The notes beneath the pieces are model-generated. The model ran no database searches. It saw only the letters and a list, made by a program, of their open reading frames with translations, and was not told where the DNA came from. From Escherichia coli (GTDB lineage: Bacteria; Pseudomonadota; Gammaproteobacteria; Enterobacterales; Enterobacteriaceae), in NCBI RefSeq assembly GCF_048403405.1, contig NZ_CP183129.1: 64,000 bases of DNA; one strand, 5' to 3'. Shown here piece after piece: positions 2,296-16,524 of the stretch. How positions within the stretch are numbered: the stretch's first letter is position 1; each line of letters begins with the position of its first letter. A program made the translations under genes and the position numbers.

Positions 2296-3465
2296 ATGTC
2301 TGTAGCCCTTATTCGTGACGGCGTCATCCGTCCATCCGAAAACGATTCGCATGTGCTTACCGCCATGCTGCCCTCGTCCTGCCCACAAAACCACGCGGCG
2401 AATATTCTGCCTTTGCCGGATGGCGCGTTAATGTGCGTCTGGTTTGCGGGAACGCAGGAAGGTATTGCCGATATTTCTGTCTGGGGATCGCGATTGCCCG
2501 CTGGCGGGATGCAGTGGAGCGATGCGGTCAAACTTTCCCACGATGACACGCGTTCAGAGCAAAACCCAGTGCTGTTTCTCGCGCCGGATAACGTGCTGTG
2601 GCTGCTATGGACCGCACAAATATCCGGGAATCAGGACACCGCCATCGTCCGCTACCGTAAGTCAGACGACCTCGGACAAACCTGGGGCGAGATTGCCACG
2701 CTGCTCGATAAACCCGGCACGTTCATTCGCCAGCCGATCACGGTGCTTGATAACGGCAACTGGCTGCTGCCCGTCTTTTATTGCCGTACCCAACCCGGTG
2801 AAAAATGGGTCGGCAATGATGATATCAGCGCAGTGAAAATTTCCGCTGACGGTGGTCACTCCTGGCGCGATGTCGTGGTGCCGCAAAGTCTCGGCTGCGT
2901 TCATATGAATATCACAATGCTGCACGACAGTACGTTGGTTGCTCTCTTTCGAAGCCGTTGGGCAGACAACATCTATATCAGCCATTCAGTGGACAACGGC
3001 GAGAGTTGGTCGGTGCCGCAAGCTACCGAATTGCCCAACAACAATTCGTCTATTCAGGTAACGACGCTTGCCAGCGGCGAACTGGCGCTGGTGTACAACG
3101 CGATGAGTGCGGCAGGCGCAGTAGAACGTCGCGCGTCGCTTTATGACGAAATCGACGATGGCGACGACAGCCGCAAAGAACCGACAGCCGTCGGACGCTC
3201 CGCTTTCTGGGGGGCCCCACGCGCGCCGATGACGGTAGCGATTTCTGCCGATGGTGGGAAAAGCTGGCCGTGGCGGCGCAATCTCGATGAAGGCGACGGC
3301 TACTGCATGACCAACAATTCCCTGGAAAAGCTAAATCGTGAGTTCTCCTACCCCAGCATCAAACAAAGCCCGGACGGTACGCTACATATCGCTTACACCT
3401 GGTGGCGTCAGGCCATCAAGTACGTGCGCATCTCCCCCGAGTGGGTTAAGGGGCAGGCATCATGA
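2296..3465 (+). CDS. BNR/Asp-box repeat sialidase-fold protein (exo-alpha-sialidase family), no signal peptide
   Basis: 389 aa. Four Asp-boxes (S-x-D-x-G-x-[ST]-W): SDDLGQTW nt 2662-2685, SADGGHSW 2842-2865, SVDNGESW 2986-3009, SADGGKSW 3244-3267. N-terminal V-I-R-P resembles the sialidase RIP motif. The N-terminus is hydrophilic, with no leader or lipobox. Confidence 0.8.
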   Translation: MSVALIRDGVIRPSENDSHVLTAMLPSSCPQNHAANILPLPDGALMCVWFAGTQEGIADISVWGSRLPAGGMQWSDAVKLSHDDTRSEQNPVLFLAPDNVLWLLWTAQISGNQDTAIVRYRKSDDLGQTWGEIATLLDKPGTFIRQPITVLDNGNWLLPVFYCRTQPGEKWVGNDDISAVKISADGGHSWRDVVVPQSLGCVHMNITMLHDSTLVALFRSRWADNIYISHSVDNGESWSVPQATELPNNNSSIQVTTLASGELALVYNAMSAAGAVERRASLYDEIDDGDDSRKEPTAVGRSAFWGAPRAPMTVAISADGGKSWPWRRNLDEGDGYCMTNNSLEKLNREFSYPSIKQSPDGTLHIAYTWWRQAIKYVRISPEWVKGQAS

Positions 3466-5314: not shown

Positions 5315-7261
5315 TTACTTTTTGATTTCATACAGCGGCGTTTGACCCGCCACGACATGGCCCTGAGCTTTAATGATCAAGCCGCTGAAATCGTCGATAT
5401 TGCTGCAAACCACCGGGCTAATCATCGAGCGGGCGTTAGCGTTCAGGTAATCCAGATCCATTTCCAGAATCGGTTGTCCTGCGCTTACCTGCGCGCCCTC
5501 TTCCACCAGACGTTTAAAACCTTTACCTTCCAGCGCTACGGTGTCGATACCCATATGGACGACGATCTCCGCGCCTTTTTCGGTTTCCAGGCAGAACGCG
5601 TGGTTGGTATTGAAGATTTTCACGATTGTCCCTGCGGCTGGTGATACGACGATTTTATCTGTCGGTTTCACCGCCACACCGTCACCCACCGCTTTGCTGG
5701 CGAATGCTTCGTCAGGAACCTGATCCAGTGCCACAACATCACCGGTAATCGGCGATACCAGCTCCGCGACAGACACCGCGTTTGGTATAGCCTGCGGTTT
5801 TGCTACAGGCGCGGCAGTTGCAGGCGCAGTTTCAGCTGACGTAGCGGCTACCGGACCACGGGCAACAACTTTCTTCATTGCATCGCCAATGGATTCCGCT
5901 TTCGCGCCAACAATCACCTGAATAGTCTGTTTGTTCAGTTTCACTACCCCAGAAGCACCCAGCCGTTTACACATCGCATCGTTGACGCGAGCCGAGTCAA
6001 CCACGGTCAGGCGCAGACGAGTAATACAGGCGTCAATTGCTTTCAGGTTGTCAGTGCCGCCAACCGCAGCAATATAGTTGGTCGCCAGTTGATTGAGGCC
6101 TTCTTCAGTGTTGCTGTTGGCTTCTTCAGTAACGATCTCATCTTCTTTATCTTCACGACCCGGCGTTTTCAGGTTGAACATGCGGATAACCAAACTGAAC
6201 ACCACGAAGTAGATAGCGAAGAAGACAACACCCATCACCAGCAGCATCCAGACGTTCTGGCTGGCGGCCGGCAGGTTATACATCAACGCGTAGTCGATAG
6301 CCCCCGCAGAGAAGGAGAAGCCCGCGTGGATACCCAGCAGCGTTGCCACAAACAGGCTGATACCGGTCAGCAGTGCGTGCAGGAGGTACAGCAGCGGCGC
6401 AAGGAACATGAACAGGAATTCCAGCGGCTCAGTCACACCGGTCAGGAACGCAGTAACAGCAACAGAAAGCAGCATACCGCCAACCATCGGACGACGCTCT
6501 TTCGGTGCTGCAAAGTACATCGCCAGCGCCGCACCCGGCAGACCGAACATCATGATCGGGAAGAAGCCGGACATGAACATCCCCGCGGTGCCGTCACCGG
6601 CATAGAAGCGGTTGATGTCACCGTGGAAAACCGTACCCGCCGCGTTGGTGAATTCACCAATCTGGAACCAGGCGATGGTGTTCAGTACCTGATGCAGACC
6701 GGTTGGGATCAGCAGACGGTTGATGAAACCAAAGATACCGGAACCCAGCGCGCCCGCAGAAACGATCCACTCGCCGCCTGCATGGATAGCGTGCTGTACC
6801 GGCGGCCAGACGTAACCAAAAATGGCCGCCAGCACCAGGCAGAAGAAGCCGGTGGCAATCGGCACAAAGCGTTTGCCGCCGAAGAAACTCAGGAAGTCCG
6901 GCAGTTTAATATCGGACCAACGGTTATAAGCTGCGCCACCAACCAGACCGGTAATGATACCCGCCAGTACACCCATGTTAATTTCCGGGTTGATGGTCAC
7001 CATCGCTTTGGTTAACACAAAGTAACCTACCGCACCCGCCAGCGCCGCCGCACCTGCGCTGTCTTTCGACCAGCTGGATGCCACACCGATGGCGAAGATT
7101 AATGCGAGGTTATCAAAAATCGCACCGCCCGCCTGGGCAATAAACGCAACGTTAAGTAAATCTGGCTGACCGAATCGCAGCAACAGCGCCGCCACCGGCA
7201 GCACCGCGATAGGGAGCTGTAACGCCCTACCGAGTCGCTGGAAAAAACCTAAAATATTCAT
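5315..7261 (-). CDS. nagE: PTS N-acetylglucosamine-specific EIICBA component
   Basis: 648 aa. Full-length recognisable NagE sequence (MNILGFFQRLGRALQLPIAVLP...), divergent from nagB. Confidence 0.97.
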   Translation of the reverse strand: MNILGFFQRLGRALQLPIAVLPVAALLLRFGQPDLLNVAFIAQAGGAIFDNLALIFAIGVASSWSKDSAGAAALAGAVGYFVLTKAMVTINPEINMGVLAGIITGLVGGAAYNRWSDIKLPDFLSFFGGKRFVPIATGFFCLVLAAIFGYVWPPVQHAIHAGGEWIVSAGALGSGIFGFINRLLIPTGLHQVLNTIAWFQIGEFTNAAGTVFHGDINRFYAGDGTAGMFMSGFFPIMMFGLPGAALAMYFAAPKERRPMVGGMLLSVAVTAFLTGVTEPLEFLFMFLAPLLYLLHALLTGISLFVATLLGIHAGFSFSAGAIDYALMYNLPAASQNVWMLLVMGVVFFAIYFVVFSLVIRMFNLKTPGREDKEDEIVTEEANSNTEEGLNQLATNYIAAVGGTDNLKAIDACITRLRLTVVDSARVNDAMCKRLGASGVVKLNKQTIQVIVGAKAESIGDAMKKVVARGPVAATSAETAPATAAPVAKPQAIPNAVSVAELVSPITGDVVALDQVPDEAFASKAVGDGVAVKPTDKIVVSPAAGTIVKIFNTNHAFCLETEKGAEIVVHMGIDTVALEGKGFKRLVEEGAQVSAGQPILEMDLDYLNANARSMISPVVCSNIDDFSGLIIKAQGHVVAGQTPLYEIKK

Positions 7262-7384
7262 CTTATTCCCCCTACGAGAACCCTATTTGGCTCGTTTAAA
7301 GCCGTATTTTTATTTTGCTGCAAATTGTACTGCCGATGTTCTGTAATCAGATTGTTAGATCATCTGCTACAGAGTGTGTGAAAA

Positions 7385-7407
7385 TTTAATTCGTATCGCA
7401 AATTAAA
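7385..7407. promoter_or_regulatory. NagC operator (nagB-proximal box) in the nagE-nagB divergent control region
   Basis: Perfect inverted repeat TTTAATT-N9-AATTAAA. This matches my recollection of the NagC box in this intergenic region. Confidence 0.6.
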
Positions 7408-7418
7408 CGCGTGTCTTT

Positions 7419-7434
7419 TGTGAGTTTTGTCACC
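7419..7434. promoter_or_regulatory. CRP (cAMP receptor protein) binding site
   Basis: TGTGAGTTTTGTCACC compared with consensus TGTGA-N6-TCACA. It lies between the two NagC boxes, as is known for nagE-B. Confidence 0.65.
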
Positions 7435-7478
7435 AAATATCGTTATCATCACTCCCTTTTACTGGCTAAACCAGAAAA

Positions 7479-7500
7479 CTTATTTTATCATTCAAAAAAT
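7479..7500. promoter_or_regulatory. Probable second NagC operator
   Basis: CTTATTTTATCATTCAAAAAAT is an imperfect AT-rich dyad about 95 bp from the first box, consistent with NagC loop formation. Confidence 0.45.
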
Positions 7501-7593
7501 CAGGTCGGATTGACGCCTGTCTGCGCAAATCCAGGTTACGCTTAAAGATGCCTAATCCGCCAACGGCTTACATTTTACTTATTGAGGTGAATA

Positions 7594-9602
<2,009 letters not shown>

Positions 9603-9610
9603 GAGAAAGT

Positions 9611-10831
9611 ATGACACCAGGCGGACAAGCTCAGATAGGTAATGTTGATCTCGTAAAACAGCTTAACAGCGCGGCGGTTTATCGCTTGATTGACCAGTAC
9701 GGGCCAATCTCGCGGATTCAGATTGCCGAGCAAAGCCAGCTTGCCCCCGCCAGCGTAACCAAAATTACGCGTCAGCTTATCGAACGCGGGCTGATTAAAG
9801 AAGTTGATCAGCAGGCCTCCACCGGGGGCCGCCGCGCTATCTCTATCGTCACCGAAACCCGCAATTTCCACGCAATCGGCGTACGGCTTGGTCGTCACGA
9901 CGCCACCATCACTCTGTTTGATCTCAGTAGCAAAGTGCTGGCAGAAGAACATTACCCGCTGCCGGAACGTACCCAGCAGACGCTGGAACATGCCCTGCTG
10001 AATGCCATTGCTCAGTTTATTGATAGCTACCAGCGCAAACTGCGCGAGCTGATCGCCATTTCCGTGATCCTGCCAGGACTTGTTGACCCGGACAGCGGCA
10101 AAATTCATTACATGCCGCATATTCAGGTAGAAAACTGGGGGCTGGTAGAAGCTCTGGAAGAACGTTTTAAAGTGACCTGTTTCGTCGGTCACGATATCCG
10201 TAGTCTGGCGCTGGCGGAGCACTACTTCGGTGCAAGTCAGGATTGCGAAGACTCCATTCTGGTGCGTGTACATCGCGGAACCGGGGCCGGGATTATCTCT
10301 AACGGGCGCATTTTTATTGGCCGCAACGGTAACGTCGGTGAAATTGGCCATATTCAGGTCGAACCGCTGGGTGAACGCTGCCACTGCGGCAACTTTGGCT
10401 GCCTGGAAACTATCGCCGCCAACGCTGCCATTGAACAACGGGTGTTGAATCTGTTAAAGCAGGGCTACCAGAGCCGTGTGCCACTGGACGACTGCACCAT
10501 CAAAACTATCTGCAAAGCCGCGAACAAAGGCGATAGCCTGGCGTCGGAAGTGATTGAGTATGTCGGTCGTCATCTGGGCAAAACCATCGCCATTGCTATC
10601 AACTTATTTAATCCGCAAAAAATTGTTATTGCCGGTGAGATCACCGAAGCCGATAAAGTGCTGCTCCCTGCTATTGAAAGCTGCATTAATACCCAGGCGC
10701 TGAAGGCGTTTCGTACTAATCTGCCGGTGGTACGTTCTGAGCTGGATCACCGCTCGGCAATCGGCGCTTTTGCGCTGGTAAAACGCGCCATGCTCAACGG
10801 TATTTTGCTCCAGCATTTGCTGGAAAATTAA
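9611..10831 (+). CDS. nagC: N-acetylglucosamine repressor (ROK family)
   Basis: 406 aa with an N-terminal HTH, a ROK domain and the CHCGNFGCLE zinc motif. Confidence 0.97.
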   Translation: MTPGGQAQIGNVDLVKQLNSAAVYRLIDQYGPISRIQIAEQSQLAPASVTKITRQLIERGLIKEVDQQASTGGRRAISIVTETRNFHAIGVRLGRHDATITLFDLSSKVLAEEHYPLPERTQQTLEHALLNAIAQFIDSYQRKLRELIAISVILPGLVDPDSGKIHYMPHIQVENWGLVEALEERFKVTCFVGHDIRSLALAEHYFGASQDCEDSILVRVHRGTGAGIISNGRIFIGRNGNVGEIGHIQVEPLGERCHCGNFGCLETIAANAAIEQRVLNLLKQGYQSRVPLDDCTIKTICKAANKGDSLASEVIEYVGRHLGKTIAIAINLFNPQKIVIAGEITEADKVLLPAIESCINTQALKAFRTNLPVVRSELDHRSAIGAFALVKRAMLNGILLQHLLEN

Positions 10832-10878
10832 TGTGCTTTTATAGTGGCGCTTATTGTTGTCAATATTCTGGGTAGTCC

Positions 10879-11631
10879 ATGACCATTAAAAATGTAATTT
10901 GCGATATCGACGGCGTGCTGATGCACGATAACGTCGCCGTACCGGGTGCAGCGGAATTTTTGCACGGGATTATGGATAAAGGCCTGCCGCTGGTGTTGCT
11001 GACCAACTATCCTTCGCAGACCGGGCAAGATCTGGCGAACCGCTTTGCCACTGCCGGTGTCGATGTACCGGATAGCGTGTTTTATACCTCCGCGATGGCA
11101 ACCGCCGATTTCCTGCGTCGCCAGGAAGGCAAGAAAGCATATGTGGTGGGCGAAGGCGCACTGATTCATGAACTGTACAAAGCCGGTTTCACTATTACCG
11201 ATGTGAACCCTGATTTTGTGATTGTTGGCGAAACGCGTTCCTACAACTGGGACATGATGCATAAAGCAGCCTATTTCGTCGCTAACGGTGCACGCTTTAT
11301 CGCCACCAACCCGGACACCCACGGGCGCGGTTTTTATCCCGCGTGTGGCGCGTTGTGTGCAGGCATCGAAAAAATCTCCGGGCGTAAACCGTTCTATGTT
11401 GGTAAACCGAGTCCGTGGATCATCCGCGCAGCATTAAACAAAATGCAGGCGCATTCGGAAGAAACAGTGATTGTCGGCGATAACCTGCGTACCGATATTC
11501 TGGCGGGCTTCCAGGCCGGTCTGGAGACGATTCTGGTACTCTCTGGCGTTTCGTCGCTCGACGATATCGACAGTATGCCATTCCGCCCCAGCTGGATTTA
11601 CCCATCGGTCGCTGAAATCGACGTTATCTGA
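10879..11631 (+). CDS. nagD: HAD-family ribonucleotide monophosphatase
   Basis: 250 aa with the DIDGVL HAD motif. It is the last gene of nagBACD. Confidence 0.95.
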   Translation: MTIKNVICDIDGVLMHDNVAVPGAAEFLHGIMDKGLPLVLLTNYPSQTGQDLANRFATAGVDVPDSVFYTSAMATADFLRRQEGKKAYVVGEGALIHELYKAGFTITDVNPDFVIVGETRSYNWDMMHKAAYFVANGARFIATNPDTHGRGFYPACGALCAGIEKISGRKPFYVGKPSPWIIRAALNKMQAHSEETVIVGDNLRTDILAGFQAGLETILVLSGVSSLDDIDSMPFRPSWIYPSVAEIDVI

Positions 11632-11638
11632 ATAGCAA

Positions 11639-11668
11639 CCACGCCTCAGGGCGTGGTTTCTTATTTTT
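11639..11668 (+). terminator. nagD rho-independent terminator
   Basis: CCACGCC-TCAG-GGCGTGG followed by TTTCTTATTTTT. Confidence 0.7.
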
Positions 11669-11887
11669 ACCCATCATTAAAATTCACCCATTCAATAAAA
11701 CCCGCCAAAAATTATCGATTCATCAATAAATACACCTCCACACCCTACCCTTTTTCATTAATCAGCAATCACCATTACGTTTTTTATTTACCCCCTGCCA
11801 AATCGCTTGCGTACAGTGCTGCTTTGCGGCATTTTTTTAAACAAGCAAACACAACAAGCAACAAATACCAGGTTAACGGAGAAGGTT

Positions 11888-13552
11888 ATGTGTTCAATTT
11901 TTGGCGTATTCGATATCAAAACAGACGCAGTTGAGCTGCGTAAGAAAGCACTCGAACTGTCACGCCTGATGCGTCATCGTGGCCCGGACTGGTCCGGTAT
12001 TTATGCCAGCGATAACGCCATTCTCGCCCACGAACGTCTGTCAATTGTTGACGTTAACGCGGGGGCGCAACCTCTCTACAACCAACAAAAAACTCATGTG
12101 CTGGCGGTAAACGGTGAAATCTACAACCACCAGGCACTGCGCGCCGAATATGGCGATCGTTATCAGTTCCAGACCGGATCTGACTGCGAAGTGATCCTCG
12201 CGCTGTATCAGGAAAAAGGGCCGGAATTTCTCGACGACTTGCAGGGCATGTTTGCCTTTGCCCTGTACGACAGCGAAAAAGATGCATATCTGATTGGTCG
12301 CGACCATCTGGGGATCATCCCACTGTATATGGGCTATGACGAACACGGTCAGCTGTATGTGGCCTCAGAAATGAAAGCCCTGGTGCCAGTTTGCCGCACG
12401 ATTAAAGAGTTCCCGGCGGGGAGCTATTTGTGGAGCCAGGACGGCGAAATCCGTTCTTATTATCACCGCGACTGGTTCGACTTTGATGCAGTGAAAGATA
12501 ACGTGACCGACAAAAACGAGCTGCGTCAGGCACTGGAAGATTCCGTTAAAAGCCATCTGATGTCTGACGTTCCTTACGGTGTGCTGCTATCTGGTGGCCT
12601 GGATTCCTCAATCATTTCCGCGATCACCAAGAAATACGCCGCCCGTCGCGTGGAAGATCAGGAACGCTCTGAAGCCTGGTGGCCGCAATTACACTCCTTT
12701 GCTGTAGGTCTGCCGGGTTCACCGGATCTGAAAGCAGCCCAGGAAGTGGCAAACCATCTGGGCACGGTGCATCACGAAATTCACTTCACTGTACAGGAAG
12801 GTCTGGACGCCATCCGCGACGTGATTTACCACATCGAAACCTATGATGTGACCACTATTCGCGCTTCAACACCGATGTATTTAATGTCGCGGAAGATCAA
12901 GGCGATGGGCATTAAAATGGTGCTGTCCGGTGAAGGTTCTGATGAAGTGTTTGGCGGTTATCTTTACTTCCACAAAGCACCGAATGCCAAAGAACTGCAT
13001 GAAGAGACGGTGCGTAAACTGCTGGCCCTGCATATGTATGACTGCGCGCGTGCCAACAAAGCGATGTCAGCCTGGGGCGTGGAAGCACGCGTTCCGTTCC
13101 TCGACAAAAAATTCCTCGACGTGGCGATGCGCATTAACCCACAGGATAAAATGTGCGGTAACGGCAAAATGGAAAAACACATCCTGCGTGAATGTTTTGA
13201 GTCGTACTTGCCCGCAAGTGTGGCCTGGCGGCAGAAAGAGCAGTTCTCCGATGGCGTCGGTTACAGTTGGATCGACACCCTGAAAGAAGTAGCGGCACAG
13301 CAGGTTTCTGATCAACAGCTGGAAACTGCCCGCTTCCGCTTCCCGTACAACACGCCGACGTCCAAAGAAGCGTATCTGTACCGCGAGATCTTTGAAGAAC
13401 TGTTCCCGCTTCCGAGCGCCGCTGAGTGCGTGCCGGGCGGCCCTTCCGTCGCGTGTTCTTCCGCTAAAGCGATCGAGTGGGATGAGGCGTTCAAGAAAAT
13501 GGACGATCCGTCTGGTCGTGCGGTTGGTGTTCACCAGTCGGCGTATAAGTAA
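11888..13552 (+). CDS. asnB: Asparagine synthetase B (glutamine-hydrolysing)
   Basis: 554 aa from MCSIFGVFD (N-terminal Cys nucleophile after Met), behind a GGAGAAGG RBS. The track's 11807 start adds 27 unsupported residues. Confidence 0.96.
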   Translation: MCSIFGVFDIKTDAVELRKKALELSRLMRHRGPDWSGIYASDNAILAHERLSIVDVNAGAQPLYNQQKTHVLAVNGEIYNHQALRAEYGDRYQFQTGSDCEVILALYQEKGPEFLDDLQGMFAFALYDSEKDAYLIGRDHLGIIPLYMGYDEHGQLYVASEMKALVPVCRTIKEFPAGSYLWSQDGEIRSYYHRDWFDFDAVKDNVTDKNELRQALEDSVKSHLMSDVPYGVLLSGGLDSSIISAITKKYAARRVEDQERSEAWWPQLHSFAVGLPGSPDLKAAQEVANHLGTVHHEIHFTVQEGLDAIRDVIYHIETYDVTTIRASTPMYLMSRKIKAMGIKMVLSGEGSDEVFGGYLYFHKAPNAKELHEETVRKLLALHMYDCARANKAMSAWGVEARVPFLDKKFLDVAMRINPQDKMCGNGKMEKHILRECFESYLPASVAWRQKEQFSDGVGYSWIDTLKEVAAQQVSDQQLETARFRFPYNTPTSKEAYLYREIFEELFPLPSAAECVPGGPSVACSSAKAIEWDEAFKKMDDPSGRAVGVHQSAYK

Positions 13553-13565
13553 GAAATGCGGTACT

Positions 13566-13591
13566 GCCCCGGAGAAATCCGGGGCTGTTTT
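13566..13591 (+). terminator. asnB rho-independent terminator
   Basis: GCCCCGG-AGAAAT-CCGGGGC followed by TGTTTT. Confidence 0.7.
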
Positions 13592-13863
13592 AGTTATTGA
13601 GCTGCTTGTTGATTCTGATATGCAGTAAGGAAATGTTCCGGGTTTGCCACATCACTGTTTGACAACTCATCACTGTAGGCCAGTACTTCATAGATTAATT
13701 TCCCACCACTATTGTTGAATTCCGAATTTCATCCTGTATGACAAAAGAATGGCTGTAGGGTGGGGAAAAAACACAAAGTAAACAATAATTGACGAATATA
13801 GCGCCACGCTGTTCGCAACCTAACCAAACAGTCACTTTCGAGCAATTTTCCTTGAAAAAGAGG

Positions 13864-13892
13864 TTGACGCTGCAAGGCTCTATACGCATAAT
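13864..13892 (+). promoter_or_regulatory. Sigma-70 promoter of the metT tRNA operon
   Basis: TTGACG (-35), a 17-bp spacer, CATAAT (-10), then a GC-rich discriminator GCGCCCCGC typical of stringently controlled stable-RNA promoters. An A/T-rich UP-like tract lies upstream. Confidence 0.55.
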
Positions 13893-13931
13893 GCGCCCCG
13901 CAACGCCGATAAGGTATCGCGAAAAAAAGAT

Positions 13932-14008
13932 GGCTACGTAGCTCAGTTGGTTAGAGCACATCACTCATAATGATGGGGTCACAGGTTCGAATCCCGTCGT
14001 AGCCACCA
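13932..14008 (+). tRNA. metT: tRNA-Met (CAU), elongator
   Basis: 77 nt ending in CCA, with anticodon loop CTCATAA. Identical to the copy at 14324-14400. Confidence 0.95.
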
Positions 14009-14016
14009 TCTTTTTT

Positions 14017-14101
14017 GCGGGAGTGGCGAAATTGGTAGACGCACCAGATTTAGGTTCTGGCGCCGCAAGGTGTGCGAGTTCAAGTCTCGCCTCCCGCACC
14101 A
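14017..14101 (+). tRNA. leuW: tRNA-Leu (UAG)
   Basis: 85 nt class II tRNA with a long variable arm, anticodon TAG and a CCA end. Confidence 0.93.
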
Positions 14102-14124
14102 TTCACCAGAAAGCGTTGTACGGA

Positions 14125-14199
14125 TGGGGTATCGCCAAGCGGTAAGGCACCGGTTTTTGATACCGGCATTCCCTGGTTCGAATCCAGGTACCCCAGCCA
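14125..14199 (+). tRNA. glnU: tRNA-Gln (UUG)
   Basis: 75 nt, TGGGGTATCGCCAAGCGGTAAGGCA..., with anticodon stem CCGGT/ACCGG and loop TTTTGAT (UUG). Confidence 0.93.
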
Positions 14200-14233
14200 T
14201 CTTCTTCGAGTAAGCGGTTCACCGCCCGGTTAT

Positions 14234-14308
14234 TGGGGTATCGCCAAGCGGTAAGGCACCGGTTTTTGATACCGGCATTCCCTGGTTCGAATCCAGGTAC
14301 CCCAGCCA
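14234..14308 (+). tRNA. glnW: tRNA-Gln (UUG)
   Basis: Identical 75-nt copy of glnU. Confidence 0.93.
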
Positions 14309-14323
14309 TCGAAGAAACAATCT

Positions 14324-14400
14324 GGCTACGTAGCTCAGTTGGTTAGAGCACATCACTCATAATGATGGGGTCACAGGTTCGAATCCCGTCGTAGCCACCA
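14324..14400 (+). tRNA. metU: tRNA-Met (CAU), elongator
   Basis: Identical 77-nt copy of metT. Confidence 0.95.
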
Positions 14401-14448
14401 AATTCTGAATGTGTCGAATATGTTCGGCAAATTCAAAAACCAATTTGT

Positions 14449-14523
14449 TGGGGTATCGCCAAGCGGTAAGGCACCGGATTCTGATTCCGGCATTCCGAGG
14501 TTCGAATCCTCGTACCCCAGCCA
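14449..14523 (+). tRNA. glnV: tRNA-Gln (CUG)
   Basis: 75 nt with anticodon loop TTCTGAT (CUG). The T-arm differs from glnU/W. Confidence 0.93.
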
Positions 14524-14560
14524 ATTTATTCAAGACGCTTACCTTGTAAGTGCACCCAGT

Positions 14561-14635
14561 TGGGGTATCGCCAAGCGGTAAGGCACCGGATTCTGATTCC
14601 GGCATTCCGAGGTTCGAATCCTCGTACCCCAGCCA
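14561..14635 (+). tRNA. glnX: tRNA-Gln (CUG)
   Basis: Identical 75-nt copy of glnV. Confidence 0.93.
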
Positions 14636-14644
14636 CATTAAAAA

Positions 14645-14672
14645 AGCTCGCTTCGGCGAGCTTTTTGCTTTT
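14645..14672 (+). terminator. tRNA operon rho-independent terminator
   Basis: AGCTCGC-TTCG-GCGAGCT followed by TTTTGCTTTT. Confidence 0.8.
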
Positions 14673-14757
14673 ATGAAATCCGAAAAAATCACCCATACAT
14701 AGTGGTCGTTAATGACCAGTGATACATTGCCTGCCTTCATAACAAAAGGATCTTGCA

Positions 14758-15342
14758 ATGAATTATCAGCTATTCTCACCATTCTTTACCAAAGTCATCA
14801 TGCTGCTTATCGCATTGCTTTGCATTGTTCTTGCCTCATTTGGTATTTCTGCCCCATTTTGTTACATCGTTTTTATCGGCATCATTTTCCCCGTTGCTAT
14901 ATCAATGCGCATACACCGTCTCAATGAAACAGGAACAGCACTCACACTAACCGAAAGCTCACACTGGATCGTTTACATCCATGGTTTTCCAGCTGAGGAA
15001 CAACGTGAAGTTTTGAAAAACCCCTGTTTCTGGTCAACAGAAAGAGTGAAACAGTTTTTCCTTCGCGGTCTTGCTGGCAAGGTTATTCTTCAACTCGCCT
15101 GCCTTGCACTTCTGGTCAATGAATATTTCCGCTCAACACCAGGTTCCGGGCAAGACTTACTCGCAGCAGGCGTGCTGTTTTTTATTTTGTTTTCGATAAG
15201 CAAAAATTTCTGGACGATGTATCTTCTCGCCACAGATAAATGGCAGTGCGAATCCCTGACCACCACCAGCGGTAGCCTTTGGTATCAGGGATTTCTGTGT
15301 AAAGGAAACAGAAGAGTTACGCTGTTTTCGCGGCTGGTGTAA
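14758..15342 (+). CDS. Hypothetical four-TM membrane protein (194 aa); no family recognised
   Basis: AAGGA RBS 7 nt upstream of the ATG. Two N-terminal and two central hydrophobic helices, with a ~50-aa soluble loop and a Cys/Trp-containing C-terminal tail. AT-richer than its neighbours. Ends 6 nt from the convergent ubiF stop. Confidence 0.55.
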   Translation: MNYQLFSPFFTKVIMLLIALLCIVLASFGISAPFCYIVFIGIIFPVAISMRIHRLNETGTALTLTESSHWIVYIHGFPAEEQREVLKNPCFWSTERVKQFFLRGLAGKVILQLACLALLVNEYFRSTPGSGQDLLAAGVLFFILFSISKNFWTMYLLATDKWQCESLTTTSGSLWYQGFLCKGNRRVTLFSRLV

Positions 15343-15348
15343 CAGCTA

Positions 15349-16524
15349 CTACAACCCTAACGCATATTTCAGCGCCTGACGTTTCAACATGCCAGCACGC
15401 TCCGCCGCCATCAAACCAAGATTACGCACAAAACGCAGTGGTGGCAGATTATTGCTGAATCCGGCATAGAACAGATCCATACCGCTCTGCATAATGAAGT
15501 TATCCGCCATGCGCCGCATCTGGTAACGCTTGAGGATCGGATAACTGGCCCACGCTTCGCCATAGCTGCGAGCGTTGACCAGAACGTCAATCAGGGCATC
15601 GACATCACGATAACCAAGATTCACCCCCTGCCCCGCCAGCGGATGGATGGTATGCGCGGCATCGCCCACCAGCGCAAGCCCCGGCTGCACATACTGCAAC
15701 GCATGGCGGCGCGTCAGCGGAAAAGCGCCAGCGGCAAGCGGTGTTACATACCCAAGACGCGACGGGAAATGCTTCGCGATTTCCGCCTGTAACTGCGCCA
15801 TATTCATATTCTGCAACTGGCGAATGCGTGCCGGAGAGTCATACCACACCAGCGATGCCCAGTTATCAAACAACGGCAGAAACGCACGAGGTCCATCCGG
15901 GGTAAATTGCTGCCAGGTGCTGTCGCCGGGATCGTTCTCACACTGTACGCTAATTAACATACACGACTGTGCATACTGCCAGGCATGAACGCCAATTCCC
16001 GCCATCTGCCGCACCTGGGAATTTGCGCCGTCGGCACCAATCACCAGCTTCGCGCGGATCGTTTCACCGCCCTTCAGTTCCAGCTCCTGAAGATCATTAT
16101 GGCGATGCAGCGCAATCAGCGAGCCTGGCACACGTAACGTTACTTTCGGATGCGCTTCCAGCGCCTGCCACAGCGCCTGTTGCAGAACAGTGTTTTCCAC
16201 CATGTAGCCAAGCACAGGCAGCTTTAATTCGGCTGCATCAAACACCACATGCGCCGTTTCCCACTCCCAAGTTTCCAGTCTGCGGTAAGGATGGCAACGC
16301 ATAGCCTGTACCGCGTCCCAGACGCCTAAACCTTTAAGCAATGATACCGAAGCCGCACTGATCGCCGAGATCCGCACGTCCGGCTGGCTATCAACAACAA
16401 ACGTCGCAGATTGGGCATGTTCGATAACCGTTACCGAAAATCCGTGCTGAGCCAGTCCCAGCGCCAGTGCGCCGCCGACCATTCCTCCGCCGACAATGGC
16501 AATTTCCGTTGGTTGATTTGTCAT
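15349..16524 (-). CDS. ubiF: 2-octaprenyl-3-methyl-6-methoxy-1,4-benzoquinol hydroxylase (ubiquinone biosynthesis)
   Basis: 391 aa from MTNQPTEIAIVGGGMVGG (FAD GxGxxG). The track ORF starts 2 codons earlier. Confidence 0.93.
   Translation of the reverse strand: MTNQPTEIAIVGGGMVGGALALGLAQHGFSVTVIEHAQSATFVVDSQPDVRISAISAASVSLLKGLGVWDAVQAMRCHPYRRLETWEWETAHVVFDAAELKLPVLGYMVENTVLQQALWQALEAHPKVTLRVPGSLIALHRHNDLQELELKGGETIRAKLVIGADGANSQVRQMAGIGVHAWQYAQSCMLISVQCENDPGDSTWQQFTPDGPRAFLPLFDNWASLVWYDSPARIRQLQNMNMAQLQAEIAKHFPSRLGYVTPLAAGAFPLTRRHALQYVQPGLALVGDAAHTIHPLAGQGVNLGYRDVDALIDVLVNARSYGEAWASYPILKRYQMRRMADNFIMQSGMDLFYAGFSNNLPPLRFVRNLGLMAAERAGMLKRQALKYALGL

Follow-up and report, generated by a model that had tools for sequence, protein, structure and literature searches.

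The 194-codon open reading frame (ORF) found between the tRNA operon and ubiF in the stretch of Escherichia coli DNA analyzed here (64,000 nucleotides in all, hereafter the window) is best explained as a genuine chromosomal gene, monocistronic, whose product is a small inner-membrane protein belonging to an uncharacterised family. Taken as a whole, the evidence makes it quite probable that this gene is an ancestral positional orthologue, i.e., a real and dispensable gene for a four-helix, cytoplasmic-facing protein that has been lost from most E. coli, and for the identity of the gene and the evolutionary parts of the explanation our confidence is good to high. Read in this way, a rare allele of E. 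coli retains an ancestral enterobacterial gene, a gene may be strain-specific and lie beside a tRNA cluster without being an insertion, and it is the K-12 reference that carries the derived, deleted state. The family is small and clean, and functional tests should be easy given its confident predicted structure, its conserved motifs and the >99% of E. coli that are natural knockouts. No medical or mechanistic importance is evident as yet.

The order of genes within the window is asnB, the tRNA operon, the ORF and then the convergent genes ubiF and miaB. The tRNA operon (positions 13932-14635, plus strand, as detected by ARAGORN) consists of seven tRNAs, metT-leuW-glnU-glnW-metU-glnV-glnX, and is the conserved left neighbour of the ORF in all of the Enterobacteriaceae loci. 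It is followed by an intrinsic terminator (14641-14672, plus strand) made up of a hairpin at 14641-14666, AAAAAGCTCGC-TTCG-GCGAGCTTTTT, and a T-tract. This terminator stretch is the last part that the window has in common with K-12, since in alignment the identity to K-12 ends at 14672 and restarts at the ubiF stop codon, 15349. Between these two points lies a variable segment of 676 bp (14673-15348), which replaces a 116-bp REP-like part of the K-12 spacer and has as its sole content the 194-aa ORF (14758-15342, plus strand, ATG start), entered in RefSeq as the "hypothetical protein" WP_001109102.1. The gap from glnX to ubiF measures 713 bp in the window (14636-15348) as compared to 153 bp in K-12 strains DH10B and MG1655, in which the gap contains no annotated gene. 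The TAA stop codon of the ORF (15340-15342) is separated by 6 nt from the stop codon of ubiF (15349-15351; gene at 15349-16524, minus strand), and there is no terminator between the two genes. A search of 14500-15500 against Rfam detected nothing beyond the tRNA. The GC content of the ORF is 44.1%, versus 56.0% for ubiF. The original prediction, which had been made from the sequence alone, thus described this locus accurately: it had given the K-12 gap as ~150 bp, had placed a single ORF in a gap of ~710 bp here, within what turned out to be the exact variable segment, and had described this ORF as AT-richer than its surroundings and as ending 6 nt from the convergent ubiF stop with no terminator in between. 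The sequence "TGTAA" just ahead of the ubiF stop is common to both arrangements; it was considered as what might remain of the ORF in the spacer of K-12, and was discounted as too short.

The stem core of the tRNA-operon terminator, GCTCGCTTCGGCGRGC, is invariant in 13 aligned loci, together with the A-run that precedes it and the T-run that follows it. From these A/T runs on both sides the terminator looks bidirectional, and it could also stop ubiF transcripts once these have passed the ORF in the antisense direction. In ORF-bearing genomes, ubiF transcripts would encounter no other terminator-like structure before it. Strains of E. coli also vary to the left of the ORF. The gap between asnB and metT is 379 bp in the window (13553-13931) and 811 bp in strain 2014C-3075, where a 145-aa hypothetical CDS (WP_000943487.1; positions 1484-1921 of our locus L037) lies between the two genes. 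Copies of tRNA-Gln(CUG) differ between near-identical strains, with two glnV/X copies (14449-14635) and seven tRNAs in the window and one copy (2926-3000 of locus L002) and six tRNAs in strain 4621.

A scan for homologous loci in one genome per GTDB species, which was limited by the search pattern, found 24 loci, and in 23 of these the gene occupies the same slot, with the last tRNA-Gln upstream and convergent ubiF downstream. The distance from the end of the tRNA-Gln to the start of the ORF is about 100-135 bp (~120 bp) in those 23 loci, and the stop-to-stop gap between ORF and ubiF is 6-13 nt in about 10 of them and up to 147 nt in the others. They span ~10 genera, including Pseudocitrobacter, Buttiauxella, the Klebsiella oxytoca complex, Citrobacter sedlakii, Superficieibacter and Kluyvera, and further carriers of the gene in this slot are Atlantibacter, Intestinirhabdus, Kosakonia and some "Enterobacter" species. 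In Intestinirhabdus alba, Buttiauxella brennerae and C. sedlakii, e.g., the homologue sits between asnB and the tRNAs on one side and ubiF-miaB on the other. The sole species representative with the gene elsewhere is Serratia aquatilis. At the orthologous loci in other genera the tRNA operon consists of 5-8 tRNAs, and in B. brennerae (7163-7909 of locus L005) a fragment of an ISL3-family transposase splits the ORF from ubiF, which is the sole interrupted junction. In most orthologues the GC content of the ORF is below that of its own ubiF, as it is in the window, and low GC is therefore to be seen as a trait of the gene and not as the mark of a recent foreign origin.

Because the same chromosomal slot is occupied in 23 species representatives of ~10 genera, the ORF-bearing state appears to be the old one, and the short spacer of the K-12 type is most likely the derived state. 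The gene would have been present in the ancestor of the Enterobacteriaceae and in the E. coli lineage, and would then have been deleted in most lineages rather than inserted in a few, with its place in nearly all E. coli now taken by the REP-like spacer. Among the species representatives, the pattern-limited scan gave no match for the other Escherichia species, for Salmonella, for most Citrobacter, for K. pneumoniae or for the E. cloacae complex. Given such a patchy distribution, vertical descent would require the gene to have been lost independently many times, and it may in part have been transferred by homologous recombination in the conserved flanking regions. The deep relationships of the ORF do not match those of ubiF: the E. 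coli ORF is nearest to that of Pseudocitrobacter, and E. coli ubiF is nearest to that of C. sedlakii.

That the ORF is a protein-coding gene is indicated by its conservation. A search of 5.8 billion proteins found 26 clusters of homologues, which, beyond the clusters and fragments from E. coli itself, are ~190-204 aa in length, are 43-61% identical to the ORF protein and originate from Pseudocitrobacter, Buttiauxella, C. sedlakii, C. cronae, Intestinirhabdus and Superficieibacter. Intact ORFs of 190-197 aa are present in 24 of 25 related loci, the one exception being a poor-quality assembly. In congeneric, unsaturated pairs the dN/dS ratio of the ORF (Nei-Gojobori, NG86) ranges from 0.09 to 0.26, as compared to 0.045-0.084 for ubiF in the same pairs, and the two E. 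coli alleles of the ORF, which differ by 10 synonymous and 7 non-synonymous changes, yield a ratio of 0.21 by the same method. The ORF is two- to three-fold less constrained than ubiF, yet purifying selection clearly acts on it. The start, MNYQ, is kept across the family, and the alignment contains the conserved blocks FPVxISMRLHRLNExGxALTLTE, WxxYIHGFPAQEQRxVLKNPCFxS and KWQCExLTTxSGSxWYQGF.

The signals for expression of the ORF are conserved as well. A Shine-Dalgarno sequence (SD), AAGGA (14746-14750, plus strand), precedes the ATG by 7 nt, as might be expected from the good ribosome binding site noted in the original prediction, and is present in most of the orthologous loci outside Kosakonia. 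Farther upstream, 38 nt from the ATG, is an extended -10-like element of the form TGnTAnnnT, TGATACATT (14720-14728, plus strand), that shows cross-genus conservation: in 21 of 26 loci a TGnTAnnnT motif begins 36-43 nt ahead of the start codon, versus 0.64 expected in shuffled sequences, and apart from this motif the genera have diverged in the spacer that precedes the ORF. A scan by strict two-hexamer consensus detected no full sigma-70 promoter upstream of the ORF. The promoter call is that of a phylogenetic footprint, which is suggestive and not proof; the ORF may be transcribed from this extended -10 promoter of its own, with a 5' UTR of ~23 nt, and would be translated from the conserved SD.

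The family to which the ORF protein belongs extends beyond the Enterobacteriaceae. A profile run against 1.84 billion cluster representatives collected 78 proteins at E<=1e-3, the non-fragment members of which are mostly 188-221 aa in length and have the same architecture. The distant members originate from other Enterobacterales (Dickeya, Leminorella and Serratia), from Neisseriales (Paludibacterium, Chitiniphilus and Chitinilyticum) and from a Flavobacteriales MAG, and all of them are annotated as hypothetical. With their common length, architecture and motifs and the evidence of purifying selection, these proteins constitute a conserved, uncharacterised family. The original prediction had recognised no family for the ORF protein, and we found none in Pfam (E<=1) or NCBIfam; searches with 56 family members gave nothing meaningful, and a profile search of solved structures returned one chance match (E 0.49). 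No neighbour is shared among nine contexts outside the Enterobacteriaceae slot, where the adjoining genes are mostly housekeeping ones, and since all of these neighbourhoods differ, the gene has no operon partner. The member from Dickeya zeae (7332-12588 of locus L034) adjoins a contractile-injection-system cluster (Pvc16_N, sheath, tube and baseplate genes) near uvrA-ssb, a neighbourhood that is seen in no other context and is probably coincidental. RefSeq already holds the ORF protein as WP_001109102.1 (100% identity) and WP_096986900.1 (96%), annotated in 9 complete E. coli genomes, and annotated orthologues exist, e.g., WP_113857514.1 of Pseudocitrobacter faecalis and a "putative inner membrane protein" of Buttiauxella. 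The E. coli entries and the orthologues are labelled "hypothetical" or "inner membrane protein" and carry neither a family model nor a function. Searches of the literature for the accessions and locus tags, or for glnX together with ubiF, returned nothing relevant.

An AlphaFold model of the ORF protein, computed from a 56-sequence alignment, has a pLDDT of 90 and a pTM of 0.82. Four long hydrophobic helices are predicted both by this model and by Kyte-Doolittle hydropathy, which agree on the two pairs of transmembrane (TM) helices that the original prediction had proposed. TM1 (residues 8-27) and TM2 (32-57) form a helical hairpin (14779-14928; all protein segments are encoded on the plus strand) with a 4-residue periplasmic turn, G29-x-S-A32, assigned from the model, hydropathy and the distribution of K+R residues. 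The next segment is a cytoplasmic loop (residues 58-93; 14929-15036), defined by the model, the K+R distribution and the alignment, which contains a beta-hairpin (65-74/77-86) and the most widely conserved motif of the protein, W70..Y73..G76-x-P78-x-x-E81....L86-x-N88-x-x-F91. A second helical hairpin of TM3 (94-125) and TM4 (132-158), at 15037-15231 by model and hydropathy, leads into a cytoplasmic C-terminal tail (residues 159-194; 15232-15339) for which the model, the alignment and the K+R distribution are in agreement and which comprises three strands (163-168, 174-182 and 185-188) and then a short helix. The original prediction had also drawn attention to Cys and Trp residues in a soluble tail. 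W162 is conserved across the family, and C90 and C164 are conserved in the Enterobacteriaceae clade only, which is also the clade whose tails contain the motif WQCExLTTxSGSxWYQGF. In a check for a possible internal duplication, in which a TM hairpin with a beta-hairpin would occur twice, hhalign matched the two halves of the protein weakly and in register (E 0.02, probability 2%).

Averaged over 56 family members, the long loop has 7.2 K+R residues and the tail 4.6, as compared to 0.05 and 0.2 for the two short loops, and by the positive-inside rule this distribution implies an N-in/C-in topology in which the two conserved soluble segments are cytoplasmic. The product is thus predicted to insert with both ends cytoplasmic, as a bundle of four helices of which hardly anything is exposed to the periplasm, and the TM2-TM3 loop and the C-terminal tail would together fold into a single beta-domain of ~70 residues on the cytoplasmic surface of the membrane. 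The positions conserved family-wide (G76, P78, E81, L86, N88 and F91, along with W70, Y73 and W162) reside in this cytoplasmic domain, next to TM3. Because the most conserved residues are there, action at the cytoplasmic face is most likely. The protein might serve there as a membrane-anchored adaptor or sensor that binds a partner or ligand, a mode of action that we propose tentatively in view of the predicted structure, the topology and the location of the conserved residues. No relative in structure or sequence points to a particular activity. A receptor facing the periplasm would be less likely, as would an enzyme that uses a known catalytic motif. A broader and speculative idea is that of an undescribed family in which a cytoplasmic beta-domain, built from two segments split by a TM hairpin, has a specific function at the cytoplasmic face; in E. 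coli, presence and absence of the gene would then be an old polymorphism at a fixed locus, kept up because the gene is of use in certain niches only.

Within E. coli, the segment with the ORF is found in 9 of 5426 complete genomes (~0.2%), at an identity of at least 99.9% in 7 and of 97.5% in 2, and the K-12-type spacer, which, judged by the REP consensus, looks like two REP-type palindromic units, is found in 5372 of the 5426. The original prediction of a real gene that varies among strains is thereby upheld, in that the ORF is absent from K-12, its frame is conserved elsewhere with a single exception and its dN/dS is well below 1. Some 45 of the 5426 genomes have neither the ORF nor at least 80% of the K-12-type spacer; an IS insertion, other cargo or an assembly problem is possible in these. 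Six of the ORF-bearing genomes match the window at 100% identity throughout the 25 kb downstream and represent one clone. The two genomes with the 97.5% allele represent a second lineage with a ubiF allele of its own, which no other genome matches at 99% or more. The nearest genomes that lack the ORF are 99.6-99.7% identical to the window over the same 25 kb, and at least one of these ORF-minus genomes, CFSAN061763, has a ubiF 100% identical to that of the window, the same asnB protein and a K-12-type spacer. Within the lineage of the window, local parsimony would favour a gain by intraspecies recombination. Between the two ORF-bearing lineages, dS is 0.077 for the ORF, equal to that for miaB of the same strains (0.080), and the nearest homologue outside E. 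coli is only 61% identical, with nothing between 61% and 96% among the 5.8 billion proteins searched. We read this as pointing to a gene that has probably long resided at low frequency in the E. coli lineage, its allele being moved among strains through homologous recombination, and consider it less likely that another genus supplied it recently. The function of the gene appears to be dispensable in E. coli. Its neighbour ubiF is an unusually diverse gene in this species: the allele of the window is matched at 99% or more in only 142 E. coli genomes and at 90-95% in 4762, and among the alleles of the window, K-12 and 2014C-3075 dS is 0.21-0.25, as compared to 0.07-0.08 for the adjacent miaB, with a near-identical tRNA operon. 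Recombination imports or weak codon bias could account for this diversity.

Other explanations of the ORF can be weighed against these data. Dispensability in >99% of E. coli, a low GC3 (45%) and the failure to find a strong consensus promoter are what might be expected of a spurious ORF or of a decaying, functionless pseudogene, an account that is already refuted for the family as a whole by the conservation of frame and length across genera and orders, the dN/dS values of 0.09-0.26, the conserved start, SD and -10 motif and a co-evolution signal sufficient for a model with a pLDDT of 90; for the ORF, its probability is negligible. It is harder to dismiss, though still unlikely, that the copies now found in E. 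coli were re-acquired after loss, by homologous recombination from an unsampled Escherichia-like donor with crossovers in the tRNA operon and ubiF. The ORF-minus sisters share the ubiF and asnB alleles of the window and differ from it in the spacer alone, the ORF-bearing strains of that lineage are one clone, the gene is found in no other Escherichia representative, and the three deep ubiF alleles in E. coli (dS about 0.25 versus 0.08 for miaB) hint at recombination in this region. Set against this history are the lack of a candidate donor, as seen in the empty interval of identity from 61% to 96%, the divergence of the two ORF alleles, which equals the genomic background, as expected from long residence, and the fact that no tract of raised divergence adjoins the ORF when the window is compared to an ORF-minus sister.

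The original prediction had favoured a mobile origin, i.e., a single-gene insertion of the defence, immunity or exclusion type at a tRNA locus, or else the remnant of a larger island, and here it has not stood up. Rarity in E. coli (9/5426), a position adjoining a tRNA cluster, a higher AT content than the flanks, membership in no known family and the location of one distant family member (L041) ~1 kb from an integrase fragment all fit such an origin. The 676-bp segment, however, consists of the ORF alone, which has no Pfam domain, and contains neither an integrase or recombinase nor a remnant of one. A repeat search of 14400-15600 found the glnV/glnX tRNA duplication and the terminator hairpin and nothing else, so that the borders of the segment have no att-like, target-site or other direct repeats and, the normal glnV/glnX pair aside, there is no duplicated tRNA 3' end. 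Neither tblastn against phages (50,697 records) and plasmids (72,556) nor a scan of the IMG/VR viral contigs with a narrow family alignment detected a homologue. PADLOC-DB 2.0 gave no match at E<=0.1 for the ORF protein and four distant family members, and PHROGs gave none for the ORF protein. The neighbours in the window are asnB, the tRNAs, ubiF and miaB, with no defence or mobile genes among them, and those of the distant members are unrelated housekeeping genes. The site does not show the sporadic occupancy, with cargo on mobile elements, that characterises tRNA islands: the slot is identical in ~10 genera, where low GC is common to most orthologues. Mobility of the ORF is already largely refuted, and we consider an insertion or island remnant very improbable. 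A standalone protective role, e.g., in toxin or phage exclusion at the membrane, is possible, with a mobile origin excluded from it. An orphan immunity protein against a pore-forming bacteriocin or a CDI toxin would fit the size and the four-TM inner-membrane architecture of the product and its presence/absence variation among strains. This too has very little probability, since the locus is chromosomally fixed, no toxin gene is nearby in any context examined, there are no plasmid homologues, no Pfam match to the ORF protein (E<=1) and no such family in 56 members (E<=0.01) were found, and constraint falls on a domain in the cytoplasm, whereas the pore domains of colicins are encountered inside the membrane.

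Two groups of known proteins invite comparison with the ORF protein. The A-type pore-forming colicins have inner-membrane immunity proteins of about 175 aa with four TM helices, and immunity to pore-forming colicins is encoded by genes linked to the bacteriocin gene, usually on a plasmid. The ORF protein is like these immunity proteins in its similar length and four inner-membrane TM helices and unlike them in that it has no sequence relation to them and no plasmid or toxin context and that its conserved domain is cytoplasmic. The PH fold is a seven-stranded beta-sandwich capped by a C-terminal helix, and the bPH (PF03703) membrane proteins such as YdbS/YdbT are a possible lead, and no more, for the ORF protein. 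Neither it (E<=1) nor any of 56 family members matches PF03703. The YdbS/YdbT-type proteins resemble the ORF protein in that a TM hairpin precedes a small cytoplasmic beta-domain ending in a short helix, and in that each is a small membrane protein that stands alone; the ORF protein differs in having its beta-domain split by a second TM hairpin.
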